Of a stretch of 64,000 nucleotides of DNA, positions 40,630-63,339 are shown piece after piece. Source of the stretch: an uncultured Gammaproteobacteria bacterium (GTDB taxonomy: Bacteria; Pseudomonadota; Gammaproteobacteria; UBA9214); contig CAVPAE010000001.1 of assembly GCA_963701455.1 (NCBI GenBank), positions 15,549 to 79,548 of the forward strand, in the 5' to 3' direction. Within the stretch, counting starts at the first letter, position 1. Every line of letters starts with the position of its first letter. A model generated the notes under the pieces. It had not been told where the DNA came from. It worked only from the letters and a program-made list of their open reading frames with translations, and did not search any database. The translations under genes and the position numbers were made by a program.

Positions 40630-40884
40630 TTTCCGTCCACAGTCCCGGGGGTGTTATTCGGGGCCGGGATTATCGCACATCGTCCCCGCGCTTCGATACT
40701 GCGGACACCCCCCATGACAGCAAACCGTGGTTGGCATTATAATGCACTGGCAAAGCTGGATAATTCCTGCTGCCGCCAGGCCAACCACAATGACATATCC
40801 GGCGGGCAAGCAAGTACAGCAAACGCGGCAACCGCCGGGAAATCACACCATCCCGGCTCCAGGGAGAATGGGGGGGGGCAGAGT

Positions 40885-41933: not shown

Positions 41934-43194
41934 TCAGGCCGGTTCAACCTGCAGCTTGAGCACGGCACGGTCGGATGCCTCGGCCACGGTAAACCGGAAC
42001 CCGGCCTCGTCAAGAGACTCGCCCTCGCGCGGAATATGACGCAGGCGCGCCATCATCAAGCCACCGATGGTATGTGACTCGCCGATCGGCAGGCTCGCAC
42101 CCAGTATCTCGTTGACTTCTGATATCGGCAGGCGGGCATCCATCAGGTAGGTCTCCTCCCCCAGCATCTCGAAAACCCGCTTGCGCCGCGGCAGGTATTC
42201 CTCGAAGTCATAGCCGACATCGATTTCGCCGACCACTTCTTCCAGAATATCCTCCATGGTGATCATGCCAACGGCGGAGCCGAACTCGTCAACGACGATG
42301 GCCATGTGATCCTCGCGGTTACGCAGGACGGGCAGCAACTGGTCGATAGTCTGGAATGGAGATACGTAGTAGGCCGGCTCGATCAGTTCCTCCAGCGGGC
42401 GATCCGGCAGTTCGGCATCCATGAGATCCCAGGTCGTCAGGGTCACGACACCGACAATGTTGCTGATGTTCCGGCTGTACACCGGCAGGCGATTGTAGCC
42501 GCGCCGGCGCACCAGCGTAATGGCGCTGCGGGTATCGCGGTTGCGGTTCAGTGCCGTCATCTCGGCCACCGGAATCATGGCCTCGCCAACCGAGGTTTCC
42601 GCGAAGCGGATCACGCGTTTGATGCGCACGCTTGTCGAAGATATCGACATTGGCACCACGATCGGCCATCTCCACGACCATGCGCATCTGTTCCCGGGTA
42701 ATGAACACATTCTGCTCGGTCTTACCGCCACCGACCAGCCGCGCCCCAAGACGGGCAACACGCGAGAACACAAAGACTATGGGGTAAAACAGCGTGGAGA
42801 AGACGCGCAGGGGATAGACAATAATGGGCGCTATCTCGTTGGACTTTTGCTGGTAGACGCTCTTCGGAACGATTTCGCCCAGAATCAGGAACAACGGGGT
42901 AAACAGCAGCACCGCATACAGGTCTCCCATCTCACCGAAGAAGCTGATCATCAGCATGGTGCCCAGCGTCACCAGGACAACGGTCGATATATTGGTCCCC
43001 ACCAGGGTGGTTCCGAGCAGGACGTCCGGCGTCTGGAACAGCTTGAGTACCATTTTGGCGCCCCGATTGCCCTGGTTGGCCTTGTGATGCAGCTTGAGCT
43101 TGTCCGAGTTGACCAGCGCCATTTCCGACCCCGAGAAGAACCCCTTCAGGAGCAGCAGCACCACCATGACCAGGGCGATAATAATGTATTCCAT
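41934..43194 (-). pseudogene. CNNM/CorC (HlyC-type) transporter, subtype B, split by a +1 frameshift near 42630
   Basis: TM part (FFSGSEMALV, GTN, GEIVPKS) in 42319..43194 and CBS/CorC part (VVDEFGSAVGMITMEDILEE) in 41934..42773; total length 3x420+1 nt. Confidence 0.85.
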
Positions 43195-43208
43195 AACCGT
43201 GTCCTCGC

Positions 43209-44801
43209 TCAGTGGAGCGCCTTGTTCTCCCGATCCGACGGGGTCGTCATCATGCCCGTGTTCGGGTTCATTTGCGGCATAGGCCGGACCGGGACCTGAT
43301 CCGTTATCCGCCGGCAGCCTTTGCCGATCCCGGCGCCTGGCCCGGGCTCCGGTTCTCGATCGGCAGACACTGAGTCTTCAGCGCCAGTGGCGACAGGGCC
43401 CAGCGTCGCCGTCCCGTCTGATTCATCCATTCCCTGTTGGTCGATGGCCGCCTCCTCTGCACCCTCGCCACGACTGACCCGCACCCGGTCGATACGGTGC
43501 TCATCCATTTCCAGGATCGTAATGGTGATACCCTCGACCGTGACCTGGTCACCCACCTTCGGGAGCCGGTCCAGGTGGCGGAAAGCGACACCGCCAATCG
43601 TCGTCATGCGCGGGTCCTCGATACCGAAATTAGCGAGGTTATTGAAATCATTCAGCTTCATGTCGCCTCGCACTTCATAATAATTTTCGTCGCGCTCCTG
43701 GTAATGCTCCAGGCCCTCCACTTCGCCGGATATCTGGCCAAATATAAAGGTCAGCACATCCTTCATGGTGACAAAACCCTCGACGCCACCGAATTCGTTC
43801 AGGACGGCAGCGGCACGGGCATTTTTTGCCTGGAAGAAGTCGAACATCTCGTCGACTTTCTTGGTCAGCGGCACCACCACCGGGGGATGCATGATGTCGT
43901 CGGGGGCCATGGCTGAAAGATCGGTAGCGTCGATGATATGGCGCAGCACATCCTCGGCATGGACGAACCCGACCAGGTTATCGCGGTGCACGCGAAAAAC
44001 CGGCACCCTCGGATGCTTGAAAGTCCGGAAGTGTTCCACCATCTCCGGCACCGACATATCGGCATTGAGAAACGCCGTACGGGTGCGCGGTGTCATGATT
44101 TCAACGACCTCGGTATCACCCGCCTCCAGCAGGTTGTAGATCAGCGCGCGCTCGGTCGCGTTGAGTTCCCCCTCCCTGGCGACCTCCTCGACAAGGGTAC
44201 GGAATTCATCCAGATGCAGGATATTCTCGGCCGCCTTCTCCTCACCGACGATCAGCGTGGTAATGCGGTCCGCCACGCTGCGAAGTACCCATACCAGTGG
44301 CGCCACAATCCTGACCCACACATTCATGGGCGTGGCGACAACCCCGGTACTGATACGCACCGGATCCGAGACCGAGATGGTCTTCGGCGTCACCTCGCCG
44401 AACAGCAGCAGCAGGGGAACCATCACCAGCACACTGATCAGACCGGCGCGCTCCACACCATAGAGTGTCACCAGGATACCGGTCATGTTCGCGGCCGAGG
44501 CGATATTGACCAGTTCGTTGCCGCACAGGATGGAGATAATCAGGCGCCGGGGCTGGTCCAGCAGTGCGTGCAGTGTTTCCGAGTGGCGGTGCCGCTCGCG
44601 GCGCAATTTCTGCAGGTCAAGCCTGGAGAGCGAGAACAGCGCGGTTTCCGAACCCGAGAAAAATGCCGAGCCGCACAGCAGCAGCCCCTGCAGACACAGG
44701 CGGATGATCATATCGGTATCCGCCAGACGGGTGGTATCGAAGGCAAAGAATGCCTCCACCAGCGCCCACTGCTGCATCAACTCGTTGAGAACACTATCCA
44801 T
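43209..44801 (-). CDS. CNNM/CorC transporter, subtype A
   Basis: FFSGSETALFSL, GNELVN, GEVTPKT, MTPR, VLNEFGGVEGFVTMKD, CorC domain, acidic tail. Start taken at MDSVL (GAGG RBS). Confidence 0.9.
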   Translation of the reverse strand: MDSVLNELMQQWALVEAFFAFDTTRLADTDMIIRLCLQGLLLCGSAFFSGSETALFSLSRLDLQKLRRERHRHSETLHALLDQPRRLIISILCGNELVNIASAANMTGILVTLYGVERAGLISVLVMVPLLLLFGEVTPKTISVSDPVRISTGVVATPMNVWVRIVAPLVWVLRSVADRITTLIVGEEKAAENILHLDEFRTLVEEVAREGELNATERALIYNLLEAGDTEVVEIMTPRTRTAFLNADMSVPEMVEHFRTFKHPRVPVFRVHRDNLVGFVHAEDVLRHIIDATDLSAMAPDDIMHPPVVVPLTKKVDEMFDFFQAKNARAAAVLNEFGGVEGFVTMKDVLTFIFGQISGEVEGLEHYQERDENYYEVRGDMKLNDFNNLANFGIEDPRMTTIGGVAFRHLDRLPKVGDQVTVEGITITILEMDEHRIDRVRVSRGEGAEEAAIDQQGMDESDGTATLGPVATGAEDSVSADREPEPGPGAGIGKGCRRITDQVPVRPMPQMNPNTGMMTTPSDRENKALH

Positions 44802-44920
44802 TACCATCCGCCTCGACTGAACCTGCACGGCCCGGCCCGGTTTTGCCACGGGCCGAAATCCCGCTCCCGGAGACCCTGCCGCAGCACCTCTCCGACCCCG
44901 CCACAGTCCGGGGCGACACA

Positions 44921-44953
44921 TGTTACTCTAATATTAACCTAATACTATCCTAA
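44921..44953. promoter_or_regulatory. Three tandem 11-bp direct repeats in the divergent CNNM / ppk1 promoter
   Basis: TGTTACTCTAA TATTAACCTAA TACTATCCTAA. Confidence 0.6.
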
Positions 44954-45008
44954 CAGTCTGACCAAGCTGATATACTTCACAAGATAAATTCAAAGGAATC
45001 CTTTAACA

Positions 45009-47285
<2,277 letters not shown>

Positions 47286-47356
47286 CAAGGTAACTGCATG
47301 CAGAGCTACCCTGCGCAATCTCAACCACTGATCCGATTTCGAACAAGGAAACAACA

Positions 47357-47833
47357 ATGACGTCAAAGCAATCCAAACAGCCGATCCTGGTTCCGATCGA
47401 TTTCTCCCCCAATTCAGAATCCGCACTGCTGCAGGCGGCTGAACTTGCCGAAGCCCTGCAGGCACCAATCACCGTGCTTCACGTCGTGCATGACCTCACC
47501 AGAACCCCGGGTTACGACACCATGAAGGGCATGAAGAAGCAATTGCGCCGCATGGAGGATGTCGCCAGTGATATTGCGCAGGAGTACATGCAGGTTATTC
47601 AGAAAAAGTATCCGGATCTCGGCGCCCTGCACAGCGCTGAAACCCTGCTGGTCGTCGGTATCCCCGTCACGCGAATTCTGGAAGCGTCCGACAAAGTCGA
47701 TGCGCGCATGATCGTCATGGGCAGCCAGGGGCGTACCGGACTGTCGCACGTACTGCTGGGCTCGAAGGCCGAGCAGGTGGTCCGTCTGGCCAAGGTCCCG
47801 GTCATGATCGTCAAGGACAGACGCAAGAAATAA
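47357..47833 (+). CDS. Universal stress protein
   Basis: ILVPIDFSPNS, VLHVV, IVMGSQGRTGLSHVLLGSKAEQVVR. Confidence 0.93.
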   Translation: MTSKQSKQPILVPIDFSPNSESALLQAAELAEALQAPITVLHVVHDLTRTPGYDTMKGMKKQLRRMEDVASDIAQEYMQVIQKKYPDLGALHSAETLLVVGIPVTRILEASDKVDARMIVMGSQGRTGLSHVLLGSKAEQVVRLAKVPVMIVKDRRKK

Positions 47834-48082
47834 CCATATTCTTGCCGCACCAAAACAGGATTGATCAACGACTGCTACATCCTCCGTTCTGTGAGCAGGG
47901 CATGCCGGAAAAAAACACGTTCCCGGCACCCTGTCGCTGCAGGAGCAGGACAATCCAGCAAGGGTGTACTGCAGGAACATTCCCGTAACGAAGCGTTGAT
48001 CGGGATCGGTGGTAAAAAATTTCAGGCTGAAAATTCCAGCCGTACTGGCGCGGCACGACCCGCCTGATTGAAGGAGACCCTA

Positions 48083-49882
48083 ATGCATAACGACTTCAGC
48101 CTTGTTGCTGCCACGAAAAATGTACCCGGATTGCTGCTGCTGGCCTGTGCCGCCATGGCCGGACTGGTAGCCATGCCGGCGTTCGCCGAAACAGCGGATG
48201 CCCAGGTCATGGACTGGTGGACCATGAGCATGCAGCTGTTTGGCGGGCTGGCACTGTTCCTGTTCGGCATGGAGCAGATGGCGGACGCACTCAAGGCCGT
48301 CGCCGGTGAACGCATGAAGGTCATCCTGGCGAAACTCACCACCAACCGTTTCATGGGCGCGGCTACCGGCGCCTTCGTCACGGCTGTCATTCAGTCATCG
48401 TCGGTCACCACGGTACTGGTCGTGGGCTTCATCACCGCGGGTCTCATGTCCATGTCCCAGTCGGTGGGCGTCATCATGGGCGCCAACATCGGCACCACCA
48501 TCACGGCACAGATCGTCGCCTTCAAGGTTACCGAGCTGGCATTGCTGATGATCGCCGTGGGTTTCGGCATGCTGTTCACTTCCAAACAGGAAAAGATCAA
48601 GCAGTACGGTGGCATGATCATGGGTCTGGGTATGGTCTTCTTCGGCATGAGCGTCATGAGCGATGCCATGAAGCCATTGCGCAGCTACCAGCCGTTCCTT
48701 GACCTGATGACGAGCATGGAAAACCCGCTGGTCGGCATCCTCATCGCGGCGGCATTTACCGGGCTGGTCCAGTCCTCATCGGCCACAACGGGTATCGTCA
48801 TCGTCATGGCCAGCCAGGGCTTCATCACCCTGAATGCGGGTATCGCGCTTGCCTTCGGCGCCAATATCGGCACCTGCGTAACCGCGATGCTGGCCGCCAT
48901 CGGCAAGCCCCGGGAAGCGTTGCGAGCCGCCGTGGTACACGTGCTGTTCAATGTCTTCGGCGTGTTGCTGTGGGTCGGGTTTATTCCCTACCTGGCGGAA
49001 TTCGTCACCCTGATGTCTCCCGCCCATCCGGAACTGAGCGGCATTAACCGTCTGGCTGCGGAGGCACCGCGCCAGATCGCCAATGCCCATACCGTGTTCA
49101 ATATCGCGAACACCCTGATCTTCATCGGCTTCACCAGCCAGTTCGTGCGCCTGGTGGAAAAACTGGTTCCTGACAGGCCACTGGAAGATCTGCTCATTGC
49201 ACGACCCAAGTACCTGGACGAGGAACTCATCGCCACGCCGTCACTGGCGCTGGAACGCGCACGCATGGAAATCGGTCACATGGGAGGCCGCGTGCTGGAG
49301 ATGCTGGAGCGCATCATGCCGGCTATCACCACCGGCAACCGCAGCGCATTGAAACAGGTTGCCAAGATCGATGACGAGGTCGATATCCTGCATGGGCACG
49401 TCGTCACCTACCTGGGGCGCATCAGCCAGAAGGCCCTGACTGACGAACAGACCCGGGAACTGCTGCATCTCATGGGCGCCGTGAACGACCTGGAGAACAT
49501 CGGTGACATCATCGAAACCGACCTGGTACTGCTTGGGAACAAACGCATTGAGCAGGACGTATCCATCAGTGAATCCACCCGGGCCGTACTGGAGAACCTG
49601 CACGAGACGATCACGCTCACGGTTGAACTGGCGCTGAAGGCCGTGGCGGACTACGACGAGAAGGCCGCACAGGAAGTGATCGCCAGGAAAGGTGACATTA
49701 CCCAGCTTATGGAATCAGCCGCCATGCATGAAGCCAAGCGCCTGGTCGCCGAGGAACCCAACCGGCTTGCCGCCTATACGCTGGAAATGGATATCCTGGA
49801 GAAACTGAAACGCATCTATTATTTCGCCAAGCGCATGTCCAAGGCGATCATGCCCGCAGAACTGGCGGAGCGAGACAACTAA
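48083..49882 (+). CDS. Na+/Pi cotransporter family protein with PhoU-like C-terminal domains
   Basis: GGLALFLFGM, duplicated QSSS motifs, GANIGTT / GANIGTC, AHTVFN, DLENIGD. ATG at 48083 follows AAGGAG. Confidence 0.92.
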   Translation: MHNDFSLVAATKNVPGLLLLACAAMAGLVAMPAFAETADAQVMDWWTMSMQLFGGLALFLFGMEQMADALKAVAGERMKVILAKLTTNRFMGAATGAFVTAVIQSSSVTTVLVVGFITAGLMSMSQSVGVIMGANIGTTITAQIVAFKVTELALLMIAVGFGMLFTSKQEKIKQYGGMIMGLGMVFFGMSVMSDAMKPLRSYQPFLDLMTSMENPLVGILIAAAFTGLVQSSSATTGIVIVMASQGFITLNAGIALAFGANIGTCVTAMLAAIGKPREALRAAVVHVLFNVFGVLLWVGFIPYLAEFVTLMSPAHPELSGINRLAAEAPRQIANAHTVFNIANTLIFIGFTSQFVRLVEKLVPDRPLEDLLIARPKYLDEELIATPSLALERARMEIGHMGGRVLEMLERIMPAITTGNRSALKQVAKIDDEVDILHGHVVTYLGRISQKALTDEQTRELLHLMGAVNDLENIGDIIETDLVLLGNKRIEQDVSISESTRAVLENLHETITLTVELALKAVADYDEKAAQEVIARKGDITQLMESAAMHEAKRLVAEEPNRLAAYTLEMDILEKLKRIYYFAKRMSKAIMPAELAERDN

Positions 49883-50088
49883 GGGAAGCTTTGACTAATT
49901 CATCTTTCGTCATGGCGAGGCGATAAGATGGCCAGCGTAGATCCCGGAAAAACCAGAAATATTTACGCTATTCGCAACTTTTCCGTGTCCTTCCTGGATT
50001 CCGGCTACAGAGAATGCAGACACTCAGCGTGAGTTGTCAGCATCCGTTATTTTTAAAGTGGAAGCATACTAGCGCCATAACGGTCTGT

Positions 50089-50511
50089 TCAGGCAATATC
50101 GCTGCCGTCCGGCCGGGGGAAATTCTCCCGCAGGTAGGCAGCGAAATAGCGACACACATCCATGCTGGTGAGCACCCCGGCAAGCCTTTCCTTGCGAGTG
50201 ACGATGACCGCATCGATATGCCGCTCCGCCATGGCCTGCAGCACACGCTCGAGTGGCGCATTGATGTCGACGACGCAGGGATCCGGGACATAAACATCCC
50301 GGACCAGCAGATTTTCCGGCCGCACGTCTGCAGCCAGTCCCGCTGACATTTCCCTGTCGCTAATCAGGCCCACCGGCCGGTGTTCCTGGACGACAGGCAG
50401 GTGATGAAACCGGTGTGTTTCCAGCAACTCCCCGGCCTTTTCCAGGGGGGCATCCAGTTCCACCGCGTAGGGGAACGGTGTCATCAGTTGTTTCAGCAGT
50501 GGGACTTTCAT
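50089..50511 (-). CDS. Stand-alone CBS-pair protein
   Basis: LMTPFP, FHHLPVV..GLISDRE, IDAVIVT...GVLTSMDVC. Confidence 0.88.
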   Translation of the reverse strand: MKVPLLKQLMTPFPYAVELDAPLEKAGELLETHRFHHLPVVQEHRPVGLISDREMSAGLAADVRPENLLVRDVYVPDPCVVDINAPLERVLQAMAERHIDAVIVTRKERLAGVLTSMDVCRYFAAYLRENFPRPDGSDIA

Positions 50512-50590
50512 GGCTTGCCTGCCAGAACGGACTCGCACTGCGACAGTGGCGACGCGTTCCTGTAGCCAGCAGCAGGAGATGTCACCCGTC

Positions 50591-50866
50591 TCATTTTGAG
50601 GAAACCCTCAGGGGCTTCTTCTTTTTACCCAGCTTCTCTTCCACCTGCCAGCTGATCCGGATACTGATGCGATCGCGGTCTTCTTCCTGGGCAGCGGTCA
50701 CTTTCATGTGCAGCAGACCTTCCGGGCGCATCACGATCTTGTCGTCCCCGTCACTGAAAGACACCTTGCCTTTGGCGAGACCAGCGGAAATGGCCGCCAT
50801 GATTTCCTGTATCGAGGCCGCATCCTGCAACGATTCGTGCCTGAAACTCTTTTTACCCTGTCGCAT
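50591..50866 (-). CDS. Amphi-Trp domain protein (GAK-associated)
   Basis: 91 aa: FRHESLQD..SIQEIMAAISAGLAKGKVSFSD...ISIRISW; amphipathic helix, beta strands and terminal Trp; GAGGA RBS. Confidence 0.82.
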   Translation of the reverse strand: MRQGKKSFRHESLQDAASIQEIMAAISAGLAKGKVSFSDGDDKIVMRPEGLLHMKVTAAQEEDRDRISIRISWQVEEKLGKKKKPLRVSSK

Positions 50867-50909
50867 AAATGCATCCTCTGGTTGGCCCGGACTTGCCTCG
50901 CGGCCACGG

Positions 50910-52241
50910 TCAGCGCAGCAATGATTCCGGCTGGAATAACTTGATGTAGGGATAATCAGTACTGATCCCCATAACAACCCTGTCGGGATGGAAGATGGTT
51001 ACCGCGGCGCCCTGCCCCTTCAGGCCATCCCTGCGGCGCGTGTTGCGATCGATCGTGGCATCACATTCAAAGTTCAGCAAGCCCTTGCGCAGCATGATCC
51101 GCTGCCCGTGGTGCTGGTTGACGTGACCGTGCACGATCACCTGAATCCCCTTACTGTGTATCAACCGGGTCCCGCGCTGCGTCAGCGGTCTGTCCGCATC
51201 GCGATACTTGGTACGCACGATGTTCGCCACCGGCCCGTAGTAAAAATCATACAGGTCCTGCCGGAGCTGCTCCTGGAACAGCCGGTTGAGATGCTTGATG
51301 CCCTTGTCACTGATCAGCGCCGCACTGCGGTCATCCAGCCCGGCGTGGATGAACAGGAACGAGCGCTCCCGGTGAACGGCCTTCATCCGCCGGTAGAACC
51401 AGTGGAATTCCCCCTTGGGGTGAAGGAACAATTCCTGCCATTTCCGTGCAGCTGCATAGACCATGCGCAGGGACAGCCCGGCACGGGTGCAGTTTTTCTC
51501 GAACCCGTCATATTTCTTCTGCATGCGCTGCATTTCACGCTGCAGCTGCTGTTCATGCATGTCCCAGCGTGCCAGCTGCGGGAATTCCCTGAACCAGCGC
51601 TTGCGGGGAAACAGCTTGCGGCGGCAGGTGCGGCTGTCAGGAATACCTTGCAGCGCCTTTTTACCCTGCAGGTATTCGTCACAAATCTCCTTGAGGAACG
51701 GGACGGCCTTTGGTCCCATGCGAATGAAGAAATGCTCGGTCCGCGGATCCGGCTCCAGGTCCAGTGAGCGGATGCCGACGAGCATGCGGATATCATGGTT
51801 GCCGGCCAGCAGTTTCACTTCGGCTCCGGCATCCATCAGCATGCGAAGCATGCGCAGCAGGCGCAGGCTGCTGGGACCCTTGTCGAAGCAGTCGCCGCCG
51901 ATGAGAAAACACGCCTTGCGCCCGGCCCTGGTGAGCTTGAAGTCCTTGTCACGGGGTCCCGTCTTGCTGAAACCGCCCGATGCCACCAGTGATGCGATGA
52001 ATGCATCGGTGTCCGCGTGCAGGTCCGAGAAGAAGTACACTGTCCGCTTTGGCCAGCGCCACGGTTTCCCGTCTATCGCCTTGCGCAGCTCTTTGGCGAG
52101 CACTCCCCGGTGACTGCGCCCCTTGCGCACCGACTTGTATTTCCCCAGCAGCCACAACTGGCTTGCTTCCGGCAGCCGGGCATCTATCCATTTGAGTCCG
52201 TGATAACGGGGCAGGTCTGTATGCCGGGCAGCTGCTTTCAT
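50910..52241 (-). CDS. Calcineurin-like metallophosphoesterase
   Basis: SDLHAD, GGDCFDKG, AGNHD, FIHAG, VHGH. Confidence 0.88.
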   Translation of the reverse strand: MKAAARHTDLPRYHGLKWIDARLPEASQLWLLGKYKSVRKGRSHRGVLAKELRKAIDGKPWRWPKRTVYFFSDLHADTDAFIASLVASGGFSKTGPRDKDFKLTRAGRKACFLIGGDCFDKGPSSLRLLRMLRMLMDAGAEVKLLAGNHDIRMLVGIRSLDLEPDPRTEHFFIRMGPKAVPFLKEICDEYLQGKKALQGIPDSRTCRRKLFPRKRWFREFPQLARWDMHEQQLQREMQRMQKKYDGFEKNCTRAGLSLRMVYAAARKWQELFLHPKGEFHWFYRRMKAVHRERSFLFIHAGLDDRSAALISDKGIKHLNRLFQEQLRQDLYDFYYGPVANIVRTKYRDADRPLTQRGTRLIHSKGIQVIVHGHVNQHHGQRIMLRKGLLNFECDATIDRNTRRRDGLKGQGAAVTIFHPDRVVMGISTDYPYIKLFQPESLLR

Positions 52242-52245
52242 TGCA

Positions 52246-52950: not shown

Positions 52951-52975
52951 GCCATTCTCACCTCCGGGACCTGTC

Positions 52976-53944: not shown

Positions 53945-53963
53945 GCCGCCTCACCCCCGTGCG

Positions 53964-55059
53964 TTAATTCGAAACCAGCAGTTCATCCAGGCAGATTCTT
54001 GCAAGCGCGTCAAAATCGATCCTGCCGCTGACCTCGTAGACAGCCACGCCCTGCAGTGCATCCAGGTAGGCCTGCGCGTCGAACTCCGCGTCATCCCGGT
54101 GAAAGCTGCCGTCCGGGTACTGGTAAAACGGCCCGGGCGATTTCATGATCGCGGCCAGCAGGTCGCGGCGATTCTCCAGCGTTACCGGCTCGACCCTGAG
54201 CGCCGCGTCGCTGTCACGGTGCCAGTTCAGCACCAGGTAGCCCCCCAGCGGTGCCTCGGTGACAACCCGACCGGGACCATAGACCTGGTCCATGTGCACA
54301 TCGTACTTGTCCTCCAGGTGCCAGAGTTCCGCAGCCGGCATCGCCAGCAGTGCCGCGCGCTGGTCAGCCGGGATCAGCCCCTGCAACCGGGCATTGTGAA
54401 CGATGGTACCGGGATTGACGCGCGGCAGCTTGGGGATGCCCACCGCGCGGGTCTGCCCCGCATCCCTGCGCACGAACAGGCGATCATTGGTCAGGTAGCT
54501 GATCTCGTCATGCTCCAGCAGGTGCAGCATCAGGGTTGACTTGCCGCCACCGGAAAATCCCGCAATGCCGAAGCCGCTGCCGCGGTAGACCAGGCCGGCG
54601 GAATGACAGATCAGCCAGCCACGGTGCTGCAGCCAGTTCATGTACTGTGCATTGATGAAATTGATGACCTGGTTGTCGTATTCCAGGCAGGGACCGGCCG
54701 CGATCCGCTGCGTTTCACTCTGCAGGAACACCATGCCGGTACGCACCTTGCGCACCACCCGCCCGCCGGGCACGTCGAAATAGGAATCCTTGCGGCCGGT
54801 CTTGCCGGGTTCCCGCTGCCAGTCGACAAAATCGATACCGGTATCCGGCGCCTCGCGCTCAATGGCAATGACTTCCATGTCCGGCTGCTGCGCTGCCTGC
54901 CGGGACATGCGAGAAATACTGCCGCAGGCCGGCGATCACTGCCGCGGAGTTGGAACGCACCTGCAGCGTGCAATCCCCGATGGCCAGCGACAGCGTATCG
55001 GCACACAGCTGCGCATCGCCCTGCAGCAGGCCGGCGATCGATTTCACATCATGGCTCAT
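53964..55059 (-). pseudogene. HprK-related kinase B (GAK system), split by a +1 frameshift near 54900
   Basis: N-terminal 54859..55059 and C-terminal 53964..54908 join with one extra base (3x365+1 nt); CHSAGL, Walker A GFSGGGKST, TNDRLF, PKLPRVNPGT, EDKYDV. Confidence 0.82.
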
Positions 55060-55955
55060 GCCTTCCCCCTTTCCAGTTCGTTCAGTACATAGTCAACATA
55101 CAGACCGGCGGCATCGATACCAATCCCTTCGTGGGCACCACGAAAACCGCCAAACGCGGACACCTCGAACACAATCGGTCCCGCAGGGGTTTCCGCCACG
55201 TCCACCGTGGTGAAATCCATGTCGAACAATGCCTGGGCACGCTGCGCCAGGTCGACGATGTCATCCGCGGGTGTGCAGGCCGCGTAGCGGCCACCACTGT
55301 TAATCGTGGTATTCCAGGCCTCGCCCTGACTCACGCGGGCATAGCTCCCGAGGTAGTTGCCGCCGAGAAAGACCATGCCCATGTCCTGCCCCGGCAGTTC
55401 CACCATCTGCTGGATATACATCATCGGGTTGTCACGGTGGAAATCGCGCACCGCCTTCTCGATCCTGGCAGTCGCGTGCTTCGCCTTGATAACACACATA
55501 CCACGGGCCTTGGTGGAATACAGCGGTTTGAACACGGCACGGCCGAAATCGTGCACCGCCTCGATCGCGGCCCCGACATCCTCGGTCACGCGTGTGTGGG
55601 GCATGGGAATGCCGGCATTGCGCAGCGTGACCGTGCAGCTCAGGCGGTCAATCAAACGCAGGATATTCTCCGCCCGGCTGAATACCCGCACCCCGGCCTG
55701 TTCGGCCACCCGCAGCAGTTCCAGGCGATCCAGGGTATTCGGGCTGTAGCTGGCACTGATCTTCTTGACGATCAACGCATCCAGCCGGCACAGATCATGT
55801 TCCCCGTAGCGCAGACTGCCACTGTCCAGATCCAGGCAGACGCCTGCCATGTCGATCACCAGGCGATACCCGGTCAGCCGCTCGACCGCGTCTGCCAGGA
55901 CCTCGGTGGACCACTTCCCGGGAATGCCCACCACACCTATTTTTATATCAGCCAA
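55056..55955 (-). CDS. GAK system ATP-grasp enzyme (RimK-related)
   Basis: TTG start overlaps the upstream stop, with GGAGA RBS. KIGVVGIPGKWSTEVLAD, IDRLSCT, FKPLYSTKARG, YIQQMV, WNTTINSGG, TTVDV, FEVSAFGGF. Confidence 0.88.
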   Translation of the reverse strand: MADIKIGVVGIPGKWSTEVLADAVERLTGYRLVIDMAGVCLDLDSGSLRYGEHDLCRLDALIVKKISASYSPNTLDRLELLRVAEQAGVRVFSRAENILRLIDRLSCTVTLRNAGIPMPHTRVTEDVGAAIEAVHDFGRAVFKPLYSTKARGMCVIKAKHATARIEKAVRDFHRDNPMMYIQQMVELPGQDMGMVFLGGNYLGSYARVSQGEAWNTTINSGGRYAACTPADDIVDLAQRAQALFDMDFTTVDVAETPAGPIVFEVSAFGGFRGAHEGIGIDAAGLYVDYVLNELERGKA

Positions 55956-57594
55956 CGAAGATCTCCCTGACAGGGACCCGGAACGATTTTTCCTGGCCGG
56001 GCTCGGTCGCCAGTACCTGCTCCAGCAGGTAGCGGGAACGCATGAACATCGCACGCGCCAGGGATTTGTCGAGAATAAAGCGGGTCGAGGTTACAAAGGA
56101 ACGCGCCAGGCCCAGTGCCAGGCGAATCTCGAAAGTCCGGTCTCCGGACTTGTCCGCGAAATCCGCCGAGAATCGGTAGAAGTCGCGGCTCAGTTCCAGT
56201 ATCCGCCGGCGCAGCGGCAAATCGAGAATCTGCAGGCGGTAGTTGGAAACCATGAACACGGAAACATCCTGCACGTAGTCCATGTAGCGGGAACGGTGCA
56301 GGTCGATGAAGTTGATCCTTTTCTCAACGGGATCGTAGATGATGTTGTCCACGTTGAAGTCACCGTGGATATAGACCGAGAACGGCGCGGAAAGCTGTGC
56401 CTCACGCGCCAGCGCCTGCTTGACCAGGGAATTGAATGCCGTGACTCGCCGGCCACACAGGCGGATATCACCCTGCCTGAATTCCGGGTGGATGCTGTAG
56501 ACATCATCCAGCCGCCTGGCAAGCTGGCGCATGTAGTTTGCGCAGACAGGTTTTTTGGTATGGGTCTCACGCCAGACCGATTCCAGCGTCTGGTTCAGCC
56601 TGCCGAGGGTTTCCCGCAGCAGCCCGCGGGACTCGTGCAGCAGAATCTGCTCAAAGGTCAGCCCGGCAAGGTGTTCGATCAGCAGGGCCGCCGATTGCCG
56701 GCGCTTGTGATAGGAAAGTATCCGCGGCGCCAGCCCCGGATAAATCTCGTGCCAGTTTTCCAGCCCCTGGCGTTCTTCCTTGAGCTTGCGTTTCTGGCCG
56801 TCCTTGAAGATGGCCACATAGCCATCGTCGTCGCTGTTCTGGGTCGTGATCCCGGAGATGACGCTGCCCGAGCGGGTTTCGGCGATGGGTTCAATAACCA
56901 GGCTGTCACCGGCATCATCGACACCCAGGTGTTCCATCGAGGTCTGCAGCGAATGGTAGCGGTCGCTGTTGACAACATGCCCCAGATTGACGGAAATGAC
57001 CGCTTCGCTGATATTCAGCAGGGTGTCACCCATCTGCTCGATGCAATGCGAAACCAGCAATGCGGCAATCAGATCCTCGGTCGCCTTGCTGTTGCGCTTC
57101 AGGTCCCGGGTATATTGCTTGCGCAGCTTGCGGCAGGCCTGGTCGAGGCGGGGTTTGACGCGCCCGATCTTCAACGCCAGCGGCGTATCGCTGTTGCGAA
57201 TGGCGGGCTCGATACGGCCGATTGCCTGACTCATCCAGCCCAGCATCGGCCGGTAGGCCTGCGGGCGCAGGCAACGGCGGTCCTGCAGCTGTTCCAGCTG
57301 CTGAATGCAGTCACGGCACAATTCCGTCAGGCGTTCCAGGTCCGTGGCGATTGATTCAAGCGCCCGCAACGAAGCGACATCACTGTCGCCGGCCTTGCGC
57401 AGCCGGGAAATCCGCTCAAGACAGCTCTCGTGTATTCTCAGCTTGAGGTTGTAGGCATAGCCGCCGCGATCAAGAATACGCTTCGCCAGGGTGTTGGCGG
57501 GCTCCCTGAAATAGGTGCGCAGATTGGCAATCTGCGACCCGGACTCGGCCACCAGAAAACGCAGGTTTTCACGAATATTCCTGGGCAGGCGCAT
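55948..57594 (-). CDS. PhoU-like domain fused to an APH/choline-kinase-like phosphotransferase (GAK-associated)
   Basis: PhoU-like helical repeats (DLERLTELC; CIEQMGDTLLNISE), then ETRSGS, IFKDG..KLKEE, IHGDFNVDNI, IDLHRS. Confidence 0.85.
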   Translation of the reverse strand: MRLPRNIRENLRFLVAESGSQIANLRTYFREPANTLAKRILDRGGYAYNLKLRIHESCLERISRLRKAGDSDVASLRALESIATDLERLTELCRDCIQQLEQLQDRRCLRPQAYRPMLGWMSQAIGRIEPAIRNSDTPLALKIGRVKPRLDQACRKLRKQYTRDLKRNSKATEDLIAALLVSHCIEQMGDTLLNISEAVISVNLGHVVNSDRYHSLQTSMEHLGVDDAGDSLVIEPIAETRSGSVISGITTQNSDDDGYVAIFKDGQKRKLKEERQGLENWHEIYPGLAPRILSYHKRRQSAALLIEHLAGLTFEQILLHESRGLLRETLGRLNQTLESVWRETHTKKPVCANYMRQLARRLDDVYSIHPEFRQGDIRLCGRRVTAFNSLVKQALAREAQLSAPFSVYIHGDFNVDNIIYDPVEKRINFIDLHRSRYMDYVQDVSVFMVSNYRLQILDLPLRRRILELSRDFYRFSADFADKSGDRTFEIRLALGLARSFVTSTRFILDKSLARAMFMRSRYLLEQVLATEPGQEKSFRVPVREIFVG

Positions 57595-57596
57595 GG

Positions 57597-58067
57597 TCAG
57601 TCGATGACGCCCATGTAGACGCCGGGGGCAGTGCTGAACCGCTGGCCGAGGAATAGCGCCAGCGAACGCGGGTAGAGCGGCATCCCCGGCAGCGCAGCCA
57701 GCTGCGCCCAGACGACCTCGACCTGGTGCTTGTCGGGGTGTTCACCGTTCATCGGGGTATAGGTGTCCGGCACCTCGCAACGAAACAGGAACTCGACCAG
57801 GTGCCGGGTGCTGGGTGGCTCGGTATCACGCTTTTTGAAATAGTCAGCCACATGGATCAAATCGTGTATCCGCACCTGCGTGCCGATTTCCTCCTGGCAT
57901 TCGCGCAACAGCGCCTGCCGCAGTGTCTCCCCAGGGTCCTGCCCGCCGCCCGGCAAGGCGAACCGCTCGCCATCCGAATACCCCTGCTTGCGCAGCAGTA
58001 ATATGCGATCATCCCGCACAATCAGTGCACGGGCTGCATTGCGTATTACCGGAACAAGATTTTCCAT
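57597..58067 (-). CDS. Nudix hydrolase
   Basis: LPGGGQDPGETLRQALLRECQEEIG Nudix box. Confidence 0.92.
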   Translation of the reverse strand: MENLVPVIRNAARALIVRDDRILLLRKQGYSDGERFALPGGGQDPGETLRQALLRECQEEIGTQVRIHDLIHVADYFKKRDTEPPSTRHLVEFLFRCEVPDTYTPMNGEHPDKHQVEVVWAQLAALPGMPLYPRSLALFLGQRFSTAPGVYMGVID

Positions 58068-58223
58068 TGGCAGCTTCCGCTACTGGTTTCGGGCAGGGCC
58101 GTAGTATACCAGCGCGCCCGGTTGCAACCCGGTGGACAAGGGTTACGCCGGCTTGCCACAACAGATATTGTGGAACACACCGATATTTACAGGTATATAC
58201 AGGGAATATAACGCAAATCCGCC

Positions 58224-59426
58224 ATGCTATCTAACAAAAGCATCAGAATTACACGTACCGCCCAGCTACCTGATCCGGTACGTATCAGTCGCTACGCGAA
58301 GGCGCCGGAACTGGGGCCGCGCATGCTGTTATTCAGTGGCGGTTCCGCGCTCAACAAGGCCAGCAGGATTCTCAAGAACTATACCCACAACTCCATCCAC
58401 ATGGTGACGCCGTTTGACTCCGGCGGCAGTTCCGCGAAACTGCGGCGGGCCTTTGCCATGCCTTCAATTGGCGACCTGCGCAGCCGGCTGATGGCACTGG
58501 CGGATGAAAACATCACCGGACAACCGGAGGTGTACCGGCTGTTTACCTACCGGTTCCCCGCGCAGGGGAAACCAAACAAGCTGCTGGCGCGGCTGGATGC
58601 CATGATCGAGGGCCAGGATCCACTGGTACATGCGATTCCCAACCCCATGCGCCGCCTGATCCGCAACCAGCTGGGGTTCTTCCGTGAAGCCATGCCCGCC
58701 GACTTCGACCTGCGGGGCGCCAGTACCGGCAACCTGATTCTTGCCGGTGGTTACATCAACAACCACCAGCATCTCGACCCGATCATTTTCCTGTTTTCCA
58801 AACTCGTCGGCGTGCTGGGCACGGTGCGCGCAGTCGTGAATGACAACCTGCATCTCGGCGCCGAACTCGAGGACGGCAGCGAGATACTCGGCCAGCATTG
58901 CCTGACCGGCAAGGAAGTCGCACCCCTGGTATCACCGGTCAAACACCTGTTCCTGAGTGCCAGCCAGGACAGGCGGGAGCCGGCCAAAGCGGAGCTCCGC
59001 AAGAAAAACAGGAAGCTCATCAAACAGGCCGACCTGATCTGCTACCCGCCGGGAAGTTTCTACACCAGCCTGATCGCAAACCTGCTGCCGCAGGGTGTCA
59101 GCCCCGCGATTGCCGCCTGTGACAGCCCGAAGATCTATATCCCCAACCTTGGGCATGACCCGGAGCAAATCGGCATGACGCTGGAAGGCTCGGTGCATAC
59201 CCTGCTCGATTACCTGCACGCAGGCGTTCCGGATGACTGCCCGGACCGGGAACTGCTGAATTTTGTTCTTATCGACAGCAAGCGCGGGCATTACCCGGCG
59301 TGCGAATCGCTGCAGAGCGTGCGCAAACTCGGCATCCAGATCATCGACACCCGCTTGATCAGCAGTGACAGCGCACCCTATTACGATGCCGGGCTGCTGG
59401 TTGCCGCCCTGCTTTCGCTCACCTGA
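58224..59426 (+). CDS. GAK system CofD-like (YvcK/UPF0052 fold) protein
   Basis: FSGGSAL, VTPFDSGGSS, GDLRSRL, GASTGNLILAG, ADLICYPPGSFYTSLIANL, YIPN. Confidence 0.88.
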   Translation: MLSNKSIRITRTAQLPDPVRISRYAKAPELGPRMLLFSGGSALNKASRILKNYTHNSIHMVTPFDSGGSSAKLRRAFAMPSIGDLRSRLMALADENITGQPEVYRLFTYRFPAQGKPNKLLARLDAMIEGQDPLVHAIPNPMRRLIRNQLGFFREAMPADFDLRGASTGNLILAGGYINNHQHLDPIIFLFSKLVGVLGTVRAVVNDNLHLGAELEDGSEILGQHCLTGKEVAPLVSPVKHLFLSASQDRREPAKAELRKKNRKLIKQADLICYPPGSFYTSLIANLLPQGVSPAIAACDSPKIYIPNLGHDPEQIGMTLEGSVHTLLDYLHAGVPDDCPDRELLNFVLIDSKRGHYPACESLQSVRKLGIQIIDTRLISSDSAPYYDAGLLVAALLSLT

Positions 59427-59428
59427 TA

Positions 59429-60682
59429 TCAGGATTCCGCCGCGGCATCCTCATCTGTCGGCCGACGGATATTGGTCTTGTTGATGCTGCGGCTGGAAGC
59501 CTCGAGAATCGTCACCTCGAGGTCGTCGATAAGGAATTTTTCACCCGCCTCGGGAATACTCTCCGTGTGGTTCAGCACCCACAGGCTGACGGTATCGGTG
59601 GGCTTGCCAGGCAGTTCCATATCGAAATACTCCTCGACCAGGCGCAACTCGGCGCTGCCATCGGTGATGATTTCATCCCCGGAAACTTCCCTGAGGATTT
59701 GCGGCGTGATATCGCTTTCGTCGTAGATCTCACCCAGCAGTTCTTCCATCAGGTCCTCAAGTGTAACGATACCGCGCACTTCCCCGTATTCGTCCACCAC
59801 GATGGAGAAATGCCGGTTGCGCCGCCGCAGCATCGCAAGCAGGGCATCGATGTTATGGTACTGGGAAACGAACAGGGGCTTGTGCCCGATTTCCTCCAGG
59901 GTCACGTCCAGCCGGTCGTTCGCAATGGCATTCATCATATCCCGCATGTACAGAACCTTGACGATATTGTCCGGCTGATCCATGAACAGGGGAACACGTG
60001 AATAGGGTTCACTGATCAGCAGTGGCAGGGCGGTCGCAACGGACAGTTTGCAATCCAGGGCGAAGATCTTGCCCTTGGGCGTCATGACATCCCTGACCTT
60101 CAGGTCATTGAACCCGAAGACCCGCTCGATGATGTCACGCTCATGGTGGTGAATCTCGCCTTCGGCAACACCGTGGCCCAGCATGCCGATCAGCTCTGAT
60201 TCGGTAACCGTCGGTTCTTCCTGCCCGCCCGTGAGACGGTGCACCCAGGTCGTGAATTGTCCGAACAGCCAGACAAGGGGGTACATCAGCCGCATGAACA
60301 GCAACAGGGGCGTGGCGGCAACCAGGGAAATGCGCTCCGGGTAGCGGGTCGCCAGGCTTTTCGGGGTGATCTCGCCAAACACCAGGACAAACAGGGTCAA
60401 CAGGCCCACGGCGATACCGGGCCCGGCACTACCGAATTCCCGCGTGGCGATGACTGTCGCCATGGCGGAAGCCCCGATATTGACGAGGTTGTTGCCAATC
60501 AGGATGGTCGTCAGCATGCGCGACGGGTCTTTCTTGAGCTCGTACAGGGCAGCCGCCCCGGCGCGCCCTTCCCTGACCAGGGCTTCCACCCGCGCCCTGG
60601 ACAGTGCTACCAGTGCAGTCTCGGACCCTGAAAATGCTCCGGAAAGCACCAGCAGGACCAGCAGTGCGGCAAGCTCACCCAT
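59429..60682 (-). CDS. CNNM/CorC transporter, canonical subtype C
   Basis: FSGSETALV, GNNLVN, GEITPKS, YSRVPL, VVDEYGEVRGIVTLEDLMEE. Confidence 0.92.
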   Translation of the reverse strand: MGELAALLVLLVLSGAFSGSETALVALSRARVEALVREGRAGAAALYELKKDPSRMLTTILIGNNLVNIGASAMATVIATREFGSAGPGIAVGLLTLFVLVFGEITPKSLATRYPERISLVAATPLLLFMRLMYPLVWLFGQFTTWVHRLTGGQEEPTVTESELIGMLGHGVAEGEIHHHERDIIERVFGFNDLKVRDVMTPKGKIFALDCKLSVATALPLLISEPYSRVPLFMDQPDNIVKVLYMRDMMNAIANDRLDVTLEEIGHKPLFVSQYHNIDALLAMLRRRNRHFSIVVDEYGEVRGIVTLEDLMEELLGEIYDESDITPQILREVSGDEIITDGSAELRLVEEYFDMELPGKPTDTVSLWVLNHTESIPEAGEKFLIDDLEVTILEASSRSINKTNIRRPTDEDAAAES

Positions 60683-60724
60683 TAGCCTGATGCCTGGCAG
60701 ACAGGAAAATCATATCCGTGCATA

Positions 60725-61966
60725 CTACCACTGAACCCTCACTTCCTCGATTGCACGTTCCGAGCCGCGCTGGATAACAAAGGTAATCTTTTTGTACCGG
60801 ACACGGGTCCCGACAACCGGCACATCCCGCACCCGCTCCAGCAGGAACCCGGCCAGGGTTGCATATTTCCCTTCCGGCAGTTCGATATTCAGGGCTTCCG
60901 CGAGGGCCTCCGGCTCGATGCGGGCACTGGCCAGGTAATCCCGTTCTCCCAGCTTGCGCAGCCACCCGGTCGGGTTCTCCCGCACGTCGAACTCATCAGA
61001 AAGATCCGCGACGATTTCCTCGAGAATATCCTCAACCGTCACGATACCCTCGGCACCGCCGAATTCATCGACGACAACCGACAGCAAGTGGCGCTCGCGC
61101 TGCATATCCTGCAACAGGGTTTGAATGCTCTTGGAGCCGGGTACGTAGTCCACCGGCCGGATGTAGGCGGCTATGGGTTCCTGCGGATCAACGCCCAGCA
61201 GTTCCAGGGCATCGAGCATACCCACGATCCGGTCCACCCGTTTTGAGTAGACCGGCATCCGCTTGTGTGCCTTGGTCCTGGCAAGCCGCATGGCCTCGCC
61301 GCAGGATGCACCCTGCTCAATGCCGACCACGTCTATAAGCGGCATCATGATTTCAGCGACGGTTGTCTCCTCGAAGTCGAACAGCCTGCGGATCATCGCC
61401 TTCTCGCTCGTGTCGATATCCCCGCCCTCGGTTGACATCTGCATCAGGGCGAAAATTTCCTCGCGCAAGGTGAAGGGGTTATGGCTCCCCGTCCGGTCTC
61501 CCACCAGCTTCGCGAGCAGACGCGTCAACAGACTGAATACGATCAGGATCGGGTAGAACACCCAGGAAAAAAACTTCAGCAGAAAAATGACCCGCGGGGT
61601 TATGACATCCGCGCGTTGCTGGAAAACGCTCTTGGGCACGATTTCACCGAACACCCAGATCAGCGGCGCCACCAGCGCCACGGCCAGCCAGCTGCCGGAC
61701 TCACCGAACAATTGCAGCATCAGCGCCGTTGCCATGGTGGTGTTCGCCACCACGGCAATATTGGTACCGACCAGGGTAGTGGAAAGCAGCCACTCGGGCT
61801 TGTTGAGCATATCCAGCGCCAGCTTCGAACCCAGCGATCCTTTCGCCGCATCATGCCGCAGTTTCATGCGATCGGCGCTGACAACACCCATCTCGGACCC
61901 GGAAAAGAAACCCTCGGCAACGAGGCAGGCAACCATCAGGCCGAATGTCACCAGAATATCGTTCAC
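60725..61966 (-). CDS. CNNM/CorC transporter, subtype B
   Basis: FFSGSEMGVV, GTNIAV, GEIVPKS, VVDEFGGAEGIVTVEDILEE. Confidence 0.92.
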   Translation of the reverse strand: MNDILVTFGLMVACLVAEGFFSGSEMGVVSADRMKLRHDAAKGSLGSKLALDMLNKPEWLLSTTLVGTNIAVVANTTMATALMLQLFGESGSWLAVALVAPLIWVFGEIVPKSVFQQRADVITPRVIFLLKFFSWVFYPILIVFSLLTRLLAKLVGDRTGSHNPFTLREEIFALMQMSTEGGDIDTSEKAMIRRLFDFEETTVAEIMMPLIDVVGIEQGASCGEAMRLARTKAHKRMPVYSKRVDRIVGMLDALELLGVDPQEPIAAYIRPVDYVPGSKSIQTLLQDMQRERHLLSVVVDEFGGAEGIVTVEDILEEIVADLSDEFDVRENPTGWLRKLGERDYLASARIEPEALAEALNIELPEGKYATLAGFLLERVRDVPVVGTRVRYKKITFVIQRGSERAIEEVRVQW

Positions 61967-63339
61967 TGTCCAGACTCCCTGGTTGACGGGTCGCCGACGG
62001 GTTCAGCCGGGGCAGCGGCTTCCCGTCCGTCACCGGGAGTCAGCACCTCGGCCGCTGCAGAATCCTCGTTGGCCGCGTCTGTTCCCTTTTTCACGGACAG
62101 CATCATGATCCGGTTGCCCTCAACTGTTTCCACCAAAAATTCCAAATCATCAATCAGCAGTTTTTCGCCAACGACCGGCAGCTCACCGAACCGGTCCAGC
62201 ACCAGCCCGCCAACGGTTTCAGCTGAGTCCTCAGGCAGATGCTGCAGGAATTCCCGGTTAAACTGCTCTATTGGCATCCCCCCTTCGATGCGCGTACTGC
62301 CATCCGTCAACTTCCGGTATGGCATGACGGACACCGAATCAGAGGCGCTGGGAAGATCGCCGAAGATACATTCCAGCAGATCCTCCATGCTGACCAGTCC
62401 GGTCACGCCGCCATACTCATCGACGACCAGGGCGAGTGACAGCTTGCGCTTTCTGAACGTATGAAACAGTTCGGCCGCCAGTTTGGTTTCGGGCACGAAA
62501 TACGGGGAACGCAGCAACTGCCGCTTGCCCTCATCAAGCCGTGACAGCTCATCCGGCTCCAGTCCGAGCAGATCCCGCGCGTAGAGAATGCCGAGAATAT
62601 TGTTGCGATTTTCATGGAAGACCGGCACCTTGGTGCGCCGGGTGCGCCGCAGTTCCTGCAGCATGTCCTCCAGTGACCTGTCCGCAGACAGGAACAGCAC
62701 ATTCGACCGGGGCGTCATCACGTCCTCGACGGTCATGTCACCGAACTCGAAGATATGGTCGATGTAGCGCGCCTCGACCGGATTCAGCACCCCTTCCCCG
62801 ACCGCTTCCCGGGCCAGGGTCCGCACCATGTCCTCGGTCACGATATTTGCACGCGAACGTTCCTTGCCGACAATCAGGGTGGTCACCCAGTCCGCCACCT
62901 GCCGCACCAGCCAGCGCAGCGGGCTTATCAGGGAGGCAAACAGGGCGATGTATTTGCTCTGAAAGGCAGCGAAGGCGACATTGTTCCTGATAGCCAGGGT
63001 TTTCGGGGTGATCTCTCCCACCAGCAGCAGGATTGGCACCATGATGAACAGGTTCACAAACTTGTTCTCGGCACCCAGCAGCTGGATAACGATCGCTGCC
63101 GAAATCACGGATGCGGCCACGTTCACGAATTCATTGCCAATGAGAATGGTCACGATCAGGCGACGCGGCTGGCTCAACAGCCGTTCAATCTGCTTCAGGC
63201 CGGCGTGACCATCACGCCGCATCTGTTCCAGCTGGATCTTGCTTAGCGAAAACAGGCTCGTTTCGGCACTGGAGAAGAAACCCGAAAACCCCATCAGGAC
63301 CACGAACAACGTCACTTCAATCCACAATGTAATATCCAT
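61963..63339 (-). CDS. CNNM/CorC transporter, subtype A
   Basis: FFSSAETSLFSL, GNEFVN, GEITPKT, MTPR, VVDEYGGVTGLVSMED. Confidence 0.92.
   Translation of the reverse strand: MDITLWIEVTLFVVLMGFSGFFSSAETSLFSLSKIQLEQMRRDGHAGLKQIERLLSQPRRLIVTILIGNEFVNVAASVISAAIVIQLLGAENKFVNLFIMVPILLLVGEITPKTLAIRNNVAFAAFQSKYIALFASLISPLRWLVRQVADWVTTLIVGKERSRANIVTEDMVRTLAREAVGEGVLNPVEARYIDHIFEFGDMTVEDVMTPRSNVLFLSADRSLEDMLQELRRTRRTKVPVFHENRNNILGILYARDLLGLEPDELSRLDEGKRQLLRSPYFVPETKLAAELFHTFRKRKLSLALVVDEYGGVTGLVSMEDLLECIFGDLPSASDSVSVMPYRKLTDGSTRIEGGMPIEQFNREFLQHLPEDSAETVGGLVLDRFGELPVVGEKLLIDDLEFLVETVEGNRIMMLSVKKGTDAANEDSAAAEVLTPGDGREAAAPAEPVGDPSTRESGQ

Follow-up and report, generated by a model that had tools for sequence, protein, structure and literature searches.

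A 64,000-nucleotide (nt) stretch of DNA from an uncultured gammaproteobacterium (GenBank assembly GCA_963701455.1, contig CAVPAE010000001.1), hereafter the window, encodes two tandem pairs of CorB/CNNM-type transporters, A1-B1 and A2-B2. Across genomes, A and B form a conserved two-gene module that is strictly co-inherited in the A-then-B order and mostly translationally coupled. In our best reading, held with moderate confidence, the two proteins of a pair are the halves of an obligate, asymmetric heterodimeric exporter of the CorB/CNNM type, which would transport a divalent cation, probably Mg2+. Judged from these genes, the CorB/CNNM family, known as dimers of identical subunits, probably also works as mixed dimers.

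The window holds five CorB/CNNM genes, all on the minus strand: the two pairs and a canonical gene, C. A sequence-only reading of the window had described five paralogues in two tandem pairs, with A directly upstream of B, and both the open reading frame (ORF) listing and Pfam scans agree with it (Table 1). All five show the order of DUF21 transmembrane (TM) domain, CBS pair, and CorC_HlyC domain (PF01595, PF00571, and PF03471); the CNNM/DUF21 domain was detected with E-values from 1e-43 to 1e-57 and scores from 147 to 193 bits against a cut-off of 28.4, for B1 via its N-terminal fragment, the CBS pair and CorC_HlyC domain of B1 being located in a second reading frame, past a frameshift. The motifs quoted in that reading were also correct, namely, SETALFSLS and GNE in A1, AETSLFSLS and GNE in A2, SEMALV and GTN in B1, and SEMGVV and GTN in B2, and C is canonical as it had stated, with SETALVAL and GNN. 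The whole genome (3.6 Mb, 12 contigs) has seven CNNM genes, of which the CorB-like gene D and the TlyC-like gene E are on other contigs; because five of the seven lie within these 21 kb, the clustering is far from chance. C, which is most likely an ordinary homodimer-type CorB, is situated 42 nt downstream of B2.

The linkage of A and B was surveyed in 250 evenly drawn genomes of the class, in 401 genomes of the phylum, and in a species scan with an A profile (one genome per species), which yielded 80 loci from 80 species in at least five phyla. A-type proteins were found in 8 of the 250 class genomes, the present one included, and a B2 search returned exactly those 8, every B lying directly after its matching A. 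In the phylum sample, the B profile gave 44 matches scoring 418 bits or more, spread over 23 genomes, followed by one partial match at 331 bits and then by ordinary full-length CNNM proteins at 285 bits or less; the cognate A was immediately upstream on the same strand in all 43 B loci examined, and the next-best matches, which are D-type, are solitary genes. In the species scan (two loci fragmented), B2 follows A2 in every locus that is not cut by a contig end. The species concerned include many Candidatus Accumulibacter species, Dechloromonas, Azonexus, Competibacteraceae, Sedimenticola, Chromatiaceae, Thiosymbion, Arenicellales, Woeseiaceae, Kiloniellaceae, Inquilinaceae, Magnetococcales, Desulfobacterales, Thermodesulfobacteriota, Rhodothermales, and Acidobacteriota. 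A is upstream of B on the same strand in 89 of 89 pairs, the A2-B2 gap is –8 to +8 nt in about 61 of 73, and A1-B1-A2-B2 occurs as a single block in five loci. Orphan A or B genes, which the sequence-only reading had named as evidence against pairing, were absent from all of the more than 130 loci surveyed. The junctions in the window, a GTGA stop/start overlap in pair 2 and a 14-nt gap with GAGGA in pair 1, fit with cotranslation, and the overlap implies translational coupling of A2 and B2.

A maximum-likelihood tree of 109 sequences placed A1, A2, B1, B2, C, D, and E in one clade each, with support of at least 97 in the Shimodaira-Hasegawa-like approximate likelihood ratio test (SH-aLRT), and further joined A1 with A2 (SH-aLRT, 99) and B1 with B2 (SH-aLRT, 100). 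The tree and the genome surveys therefore give the same answer to a test named in the sequence-only reading: A and B are separate clades that occur next to each other. Protein identity is 34% for A1-A2, 38% for B1-B2, and 23 to 33% for all remaining pairs. The A1+A2 and B1+B2 clades indicate the duplication of an ancestral A-B pair as a whole, and the A1-B1 and A2-B2 genes of the window are most likely anciently duplicated copies of one two-gene module. Recent tandem duplication and chance adjacency were also considered and are ruled out by the A-B identity of about 24% and by a B clade that spans domains of life.

In order to locate the differences between A and B, column statistics of 209 sequences were mapped onto the ligand lists of two structurally characterized proteins. 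Mg2+ is coordinated by Ser21, Ser25, Ser71, the Gly110 carbonyl, and Glu111 in MtCorB (PMC8242095) and by Ser43, Ser47, Asn90, Gly129, and Glu130 in TpCorC, in which Asn91 and Asn94 adjoin the Mg2+ site at the dimer interface and Asn94 is required for Na+ sensitivity (PMC7875539). The complete TpCorC ligand set is present in A1, A2, and C. A-type proteins retain every ligand as well as Asn94 and have Glu without exception in place of Asn91, hence the GNE motif. In B-type proteins, the first ligand Ser is replaced by Lys in B1 (93%) or Glu in B2 (100%), Asn90 by Thr, and Asn94 by Thr or Val, and an Ile or Met follows the TM1 Glu. The Ser replacement, which the sequence-only reading did not mention, is the most telling change in B. 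Among 138 representatives matched by the B profile, Glu occupies the first ligand position in 57%, Gln in 17%, Lys in 7%, and Ser in only 9%, and the second ligand Ser (S25) is kept in 82%. The π-helix motif GE-x-x-PK in TM3 reads GEVTPK in A1, GEITPK in A2 and C, and GEIVPK in B1 and B2.

The acidic helical bundle, a symmetric dimer contact in MtCorB (PMC8242095), also differs: its net charge is –11 in MtCorB, –7.1 in A1, –4.2 in A2, and –6.8 in C, compared with +2.6 in B1 and –1.6 in B2. Mapped in this way, the A/B changes are concentrated around the ion site and two known dimer contacts, with opposite directions in A and B. The "complementary motif changes" of the sequence-only reading hold to that extent, that is, for the Glu of A at the second Asn of GNN and the Asn of LVN lost in B, both at the TpCorC interface, and for the bundle, whose acidity in A gives way to a neutral or basic charge in B; they do not hold for the GTN of B, which is not exotic, because the characterized MtCorB carries a similar GST. 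The residues of the CBS pair that contact ATP are largely kept in A and B. The possibility that one subunit has a degenerate ATP site, known from heterodimeric ATP-binding cassette exporters, was considered and rejected, since both subunits retain the T/S-x-x-D and S/T-R motifs.

Distant relatives were collected by searching the B-type profile against 1.84 billion cluster representatives and taking the best 150 matches, almost all of which carry the B signature. Three of them (P0245, P0246, and P0247) are single chains of 882 to 941 amino acids (aa), in which a canonical-like module of A character is followed by a hydrophobic helix and a B-like module; the additional helix gives the second module the membrane topology of the first. 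P0245 (L099:3001-5826) was called as a gene on a contig of 622 kb; of the 15 members of its 90% cluster, 13 are exactly 941 aa long, and some lie on contigs of about 7 Mb. The size of this cluster and its long contigs indicate real genes rather than read-through artifacts. The C-terminal halves of the fusions fall inside the B superclade (SH-aLRT, 99), and the N-terminal halves group with A1/A2 with moderate support (SH-aLRT, 89 to 92). The fusion linker corresponds to the A-type tail region plus the helix, and the fusion gene of L099 directly follows an IS605 OrfB/TnpB-like gene. Four distant B representatives could be placed on contigs; in each case, a CNNM gene abuts or overlaps the start of the B gene, and these upstream partners belong to the A side of the same branch. 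One of these pairs, with a 4-nt overlap (L100:329-2790), lies beside genes for archaeal RNA polymerase subunits (Rpb5 and Rpb2 domains), a context that extends the paired arrangement to Archaea. Obligate heterodimers of adjacent paralogues have been demonstrated experimentally for the paired SMR (small multidrug resistance) proteins EbrAB and YkkCD and for heterodimeric Fluc channels; such paired small transporters have a homodimeric ancestor and asymmetric sites and were fused with a linker helix in some lineages, and their folds and substrates are unrelated to those of CorB.

The proposed heterodimer would derive from a homodimeric CorB and would combine one canonical and one remodelled half-site. 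A and B would associate through the interfaces that homodimeric CorB is known to use (TM2/TM3, the acidic helical bundle, and CBS); A would contribute the full Mg2+ site (Ser, Ser, Asn, Gly carbonyl, and Glu) and the extra interface Glu, whereas B would contribute the altered site with Lys (B1) or Glu (B2) for the ligand Ser, Thr for Asn, and no Na+-sensitivity Asn. The interface Glu of A and the charge-complementary bundle, de-acidified in B, would disfavor A-A and favor A-B pairing. The pairing itself, the transporting protomer, the substrate, and the coupling ion are all predicted steps of this mechanism; the altered cation selectivity and the polyphosphate counter-ion role suggested in the sequence-only reading are predictions as well.

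Several observations weigh against the heterodimer. Every CorB/CorC/CNNM protein solved or assayed is a homodimer (PMC8242095, PMC7875539), and the A-B complex is predicted here from genomic data. Both A and B retain GE-x-x-PK and most ATP-site residues, so that either could in principle work alone. The TM domains show no simple compensating charge swap, as the Lys21 of B1 and the Glu21 of B2 have no match in A1 versus A2, and in the window B1 is broken while A1 is intact. The fusions form a sister lineage outside the A1/A2-B1/B2 clades, their N-terminal halves have GNT and not GNE, one C-terminal half retains the ligand Ser, and the grouping of A with the fused N-terminal halves and the distant upstream partners has moderate support (SH-aLRT, 89). 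Within ±4 kb of A2-B2 in the 80 species, almost no genes of the window recur, which speaks against a conserved polyphosphate neighborhood, and the association of the pairs with the GAK system is weak, with pairs in three of seven GAK-positive genomes among the 401 sampled, two of these belonging to one genus in which the genes are unlinked.

In an unlikely alternative, A and B are two independent homodimers with different substrates or coupling ions (for example, Mg2+ and another counter-ion) that share an operon for coregulation only. The homodimers solved and assayed to date favor it; A and B each contain all three domains together with the invariant Glu-Pro-Lys of the π-helix motif, and the paralogous CorC-domain exporters of Salmonella are redundant rather than parts of one complex (PMC13691977). 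However, coregulation does not explain the lack of orphans among more than 130 loci, and the fixed gene order with overlapping stop and start codons, the duplication of the pair as a unit, the fusions whose added helix keeps both modules in the same topology, and the loss of bundle acidity in B only all argue against independence. We consider it rather improbable that A and B form a hetero-oligomer in which A alone transports and B is a regulatory or scaffolding pseudo-transporter, its cation site filled by its own Lys or altered by Glu/Gln. B has lost two to three polar residues of the Mg2+/Na+ site (the ligand Ser, the Asn changed to Thr, and the Na+-sensitivity Asn, now hydrophobic) and has GEIVPK in place of GEITPK, while A has every ligand; with its ATP-site residues kept, B could still sense Mg-ATP. 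Nevertheless, B retains the invariant Glu111, Pro, and Lys and mostly the second ligand Ser, the Glu of B2 could still bind a cation, and the strong conservation of the B TM domain suggests a cavity in use.

The substrate raises a separate question. We assign a low probability to the possibility that it is not Mg2+ but Ca2+, Mn2+, Co2+, or a polyamine, with the polyphosphate context being incidental. The family does include the polyamine exporter PaeA and members affecting Co2+/Mn2+ tolerance, the extra Glu of A and the Glu of B2 would fit a cation that is larger or coordinated in another way, and conservation of the polyphosphate context is weak. Moreover, no CNNM protein of the window reaches an NCBIfam equivalog cut-off by its whole-protein score: A2 scores 248 for GldE (TIGR03520; cut-off, 376), C scores 233 for PRK11573 (NF008604; cut-off, 475), and the best scores for PaeA (NF052568) and CorC (NF011675) are 169 (cut-off, 500) and 139 (cut-off, 379), respectively. 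On the other hand, A shares with TpCorC, MtCorB, and CNNM2/4 exactly the same Mg2+ site of five residues, the recurrent neighbors of the pairs elsewhere are phosphate transporters (Pit, DUF47/PhoU-like, and Na/Pi) and CorA, and the polyphosphate counter-ions measured in Accumulibacter are Mg2+ and K+ (PMC5148189); many Accumulibacter species have the pair.

MtCorB of Methanothermobacter thermautotrophicus (PDB 7M1T/7M1U; PMC8242095), to which C aligns (Table 1), has the same DUF21-CBS pair-CorC_HlyC architecture, the π-helix GE-x-x-PK, and the Mg-ATP-binding CBS residues, but it is a single-gene homodimer, with the bundle charge given above per protomer, whereas two distinct, co-inherited subunits are encoded here; in MtCorB numbering, A adds Glu72, and B has Lys or Glu for Ser21, no Asn75, and a bundle that is neutral or basic. 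TpCorC of Thermus parvatiensis (PDB 7CFF-7CFK; PMC7875539) is a Na+-dependent Mg2+ exporter, and the A and B changes at its positions 43, 91, and 94 have no counterpart in this homodimer. Salmonella likewise has several CorC-domain paralogues in one genome (CorB, CorC, MgpA, and MgpB), which lower cellular Mg2+, and the epistasis of corB and corC hints that family members can act together; unlike the pairs described here, these genes are dispersed and largely redundant, with no fixed adjacent pair, CorC lacks the membrane domain, and an A-type or B-type signature is not described for them (PMC12421838, PMC13691977). Full-text literature searches, which were of limited coverage, so that an earlier description is possible, returned no heteromeric or paired prokaryotic CorB/CNNM transporter, and the same limited search found no literature on mycobacterial Rv1841c/Rv1842c. 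Because no description was found and no equivalog cut-off is reached, we regard the A-B pairs as a new variant of CorB/CNNM.

The sequence-only reading had treated the B1 span as one gene. Its B-type assignment stands, but the span is not a single open frame, since its 1,261 nt include a net insertion of 1 nt that had been overlooked. All 14 orthologues have 9 nt at the frameshift site and the window alone has 10; the site is not in a homopolymer, and intact B1 orthologues of the same genus are 431 to 443 aa long. Pair 1 may be inactive in this genome, or the frameshift may be an assembly error. Split pairs were also seen elsewhere: A2 and B2 are both in two pieces in one gammaproteobacterial metagenome-assembled genome (L094:4140-6782), and B2 of Ca. 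Accumulibacter contiguus stops after 116 aa (L050:5417-5764), either through joint decay or through assembly errors. In genome G018 (L013:291-2061), the orthologue of the window gene at 54603..55970 is in three fragments, which suggests frequent frameshifts in that assembly.

Other features of the pair genes are as follows. A1 has an N-terminal extension of about 35 aa and a low-complexity C-terminal tail of about 85 aa, and its start at 44801 agrees with the conserved N termini of its orthologues. The A-type tails (window positions 43209-43460 and 61963-62090) are 40 to 85 aa long, of low complexity, and acidic/Pro-rich; B-type proteins end directly after the CorC_HlyC domain and have no tail. 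An Rfam scan of the whole window returned no riboswitch or leader RNA, and hence no M-box, and promoter and terminator scans gave nothing above shuffle expectation.

Table 1. Features of the window (positions are those of the 64,000-nt stretch)
Feature	Coordinates	Strand	Description	Evidence
B1	41934..43194	-	B-type, split in the assembly	Fragments 42319..43194 (DUF21) and 41934..42773 (CBS + CorC_HlyC)
B1 frameshift site	42625..42634	-	10 nt (AAGCGTGCGC) versus 9 nt in orthologues, between the FD and IKR codons	
A1-B1 spacer	43195..43208	-	14 nt, GAGGA ribosome-binding site	
A1	43209..44801	-	A-type CorB/CNNM, 530 aa, all Mg2+ ligands and GNE	Pfam; clade SH-aLRT 100
ppk1	45009..47285	+	Polyphosphate kinase 1, divergent from A1-B1	
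Na/Pi cotransporter	48068..49882	+	Fused to a PhoU-like domain	
GAK-system CofD-like gene	58224..59426	+	Convergent with C	TIGR04357, 543 bits
C	59429..60682	-	Canonical CorB-type, 417 aa, SSETNNN..GEITPK	E = 1e-63 to MtCorB
B2	60725..61966	-	B-type, 413 aa, GTG start, Glu at the ligand-Ser position, GTN, GEIVPK	
A2/B2 overlap	61963..61966	-	Stop/start overlap GTGA	GGGAG motif 9 nt upstream
A2	61963..63339	-	A-type, 458 aa, GNE, 40-aa acidic/Pro-rich C-terminal tail	Pfam; tree

Besides the polyphosphate-related genes of Table 1, the window encodes a PhoU-kinase fusion. The ppk1/A1-B1 arrangement is shared by three genomes of the genus and recurs in one further family. A 629-aa ORF (window positions 40033-41922, plus strand) that has no NCBIfam match adjoins B1 and is kept beside the pair in genomes of the genus (L012, L015, and L017) with 47 to 54% identity. 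At the slot beside the GAK CofD-like gene, comparison of L013, L014, and L016 showed C alone (G018, G003), A2-B2 alone (G010), or, in the window, C, B2, and A2 together; single and paired exporters seem to be interchangeable there. Among the 80 species, the genes that do recur within ±4 kb of A2-B2 are C (13), A1-B1 (6 to 8), and the Na/Pi-PhoU gene (4), and clustering of the neighbors gave Pit (7), DUF47/PhoU-like (5), Na/Pi (5), and CorA (2), corresponding to about 15 to 20% of the loci. The polyphosphate context is thus a feature of this genus and a few other families, not of the whole range of the pair.

Given that pair 1 diverges from ppk1 and that pair 2 and C abut the GAK operon, we propose that the pair modules here probably transport Mg2+ or other counter-ions as polyphosphate is synthesized and degraded; a dedicated exporter role would be plausible. 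In the study that measured the Accumulibacter counter-ions, CorA is the sole magnesium transporter named (PMC5148189), and two Accumulibacter genomics papers, this one included, name CorA or an unspecified magnesium transporter and do not mention CNNM/CorC-type genes. A wider reading is put forward tentatively, as possible rather than likely. The pairs would represent an ancient class of obligate asymmetric CorB/CNNM heterodimers across Bacteria and Archaea, with a canonical A and a remodelled B that has a built-in Glu, Gln, or Lys for the ligand Ser and lacks the Na+-sensitivity Asn; the coupling ion or the stoichiometry of Mg2+ export would be changed, and the proteobacterial A(GNE)/B branch would have been recruited, twice in this genome, for the release or uptake of the counter-ions of polyphosphate by accumulators such as Accumulibacter.

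Few Mg2+ transporters are as widespread as the CorB/CNNM proteins, and the human genes CNNM2 and CNNM4 are associated with disease. How these proteins transport and how they couple to Na+ is still under debate, and the available structures are homodimers only. If the heterodimer reading is true, dimers with one canonical and one remodelled half would amount to a built-in asymmetric mutant, with which one could dissect what each protomer binds and how the dimer interface contributes to transport. In polyphosphate-accumulating organisms, phosphate release is stoichiometrically tied to the release of Mg2+ and K+, and the A-B pair is a candidate for their missing Mg2+ efflux route.

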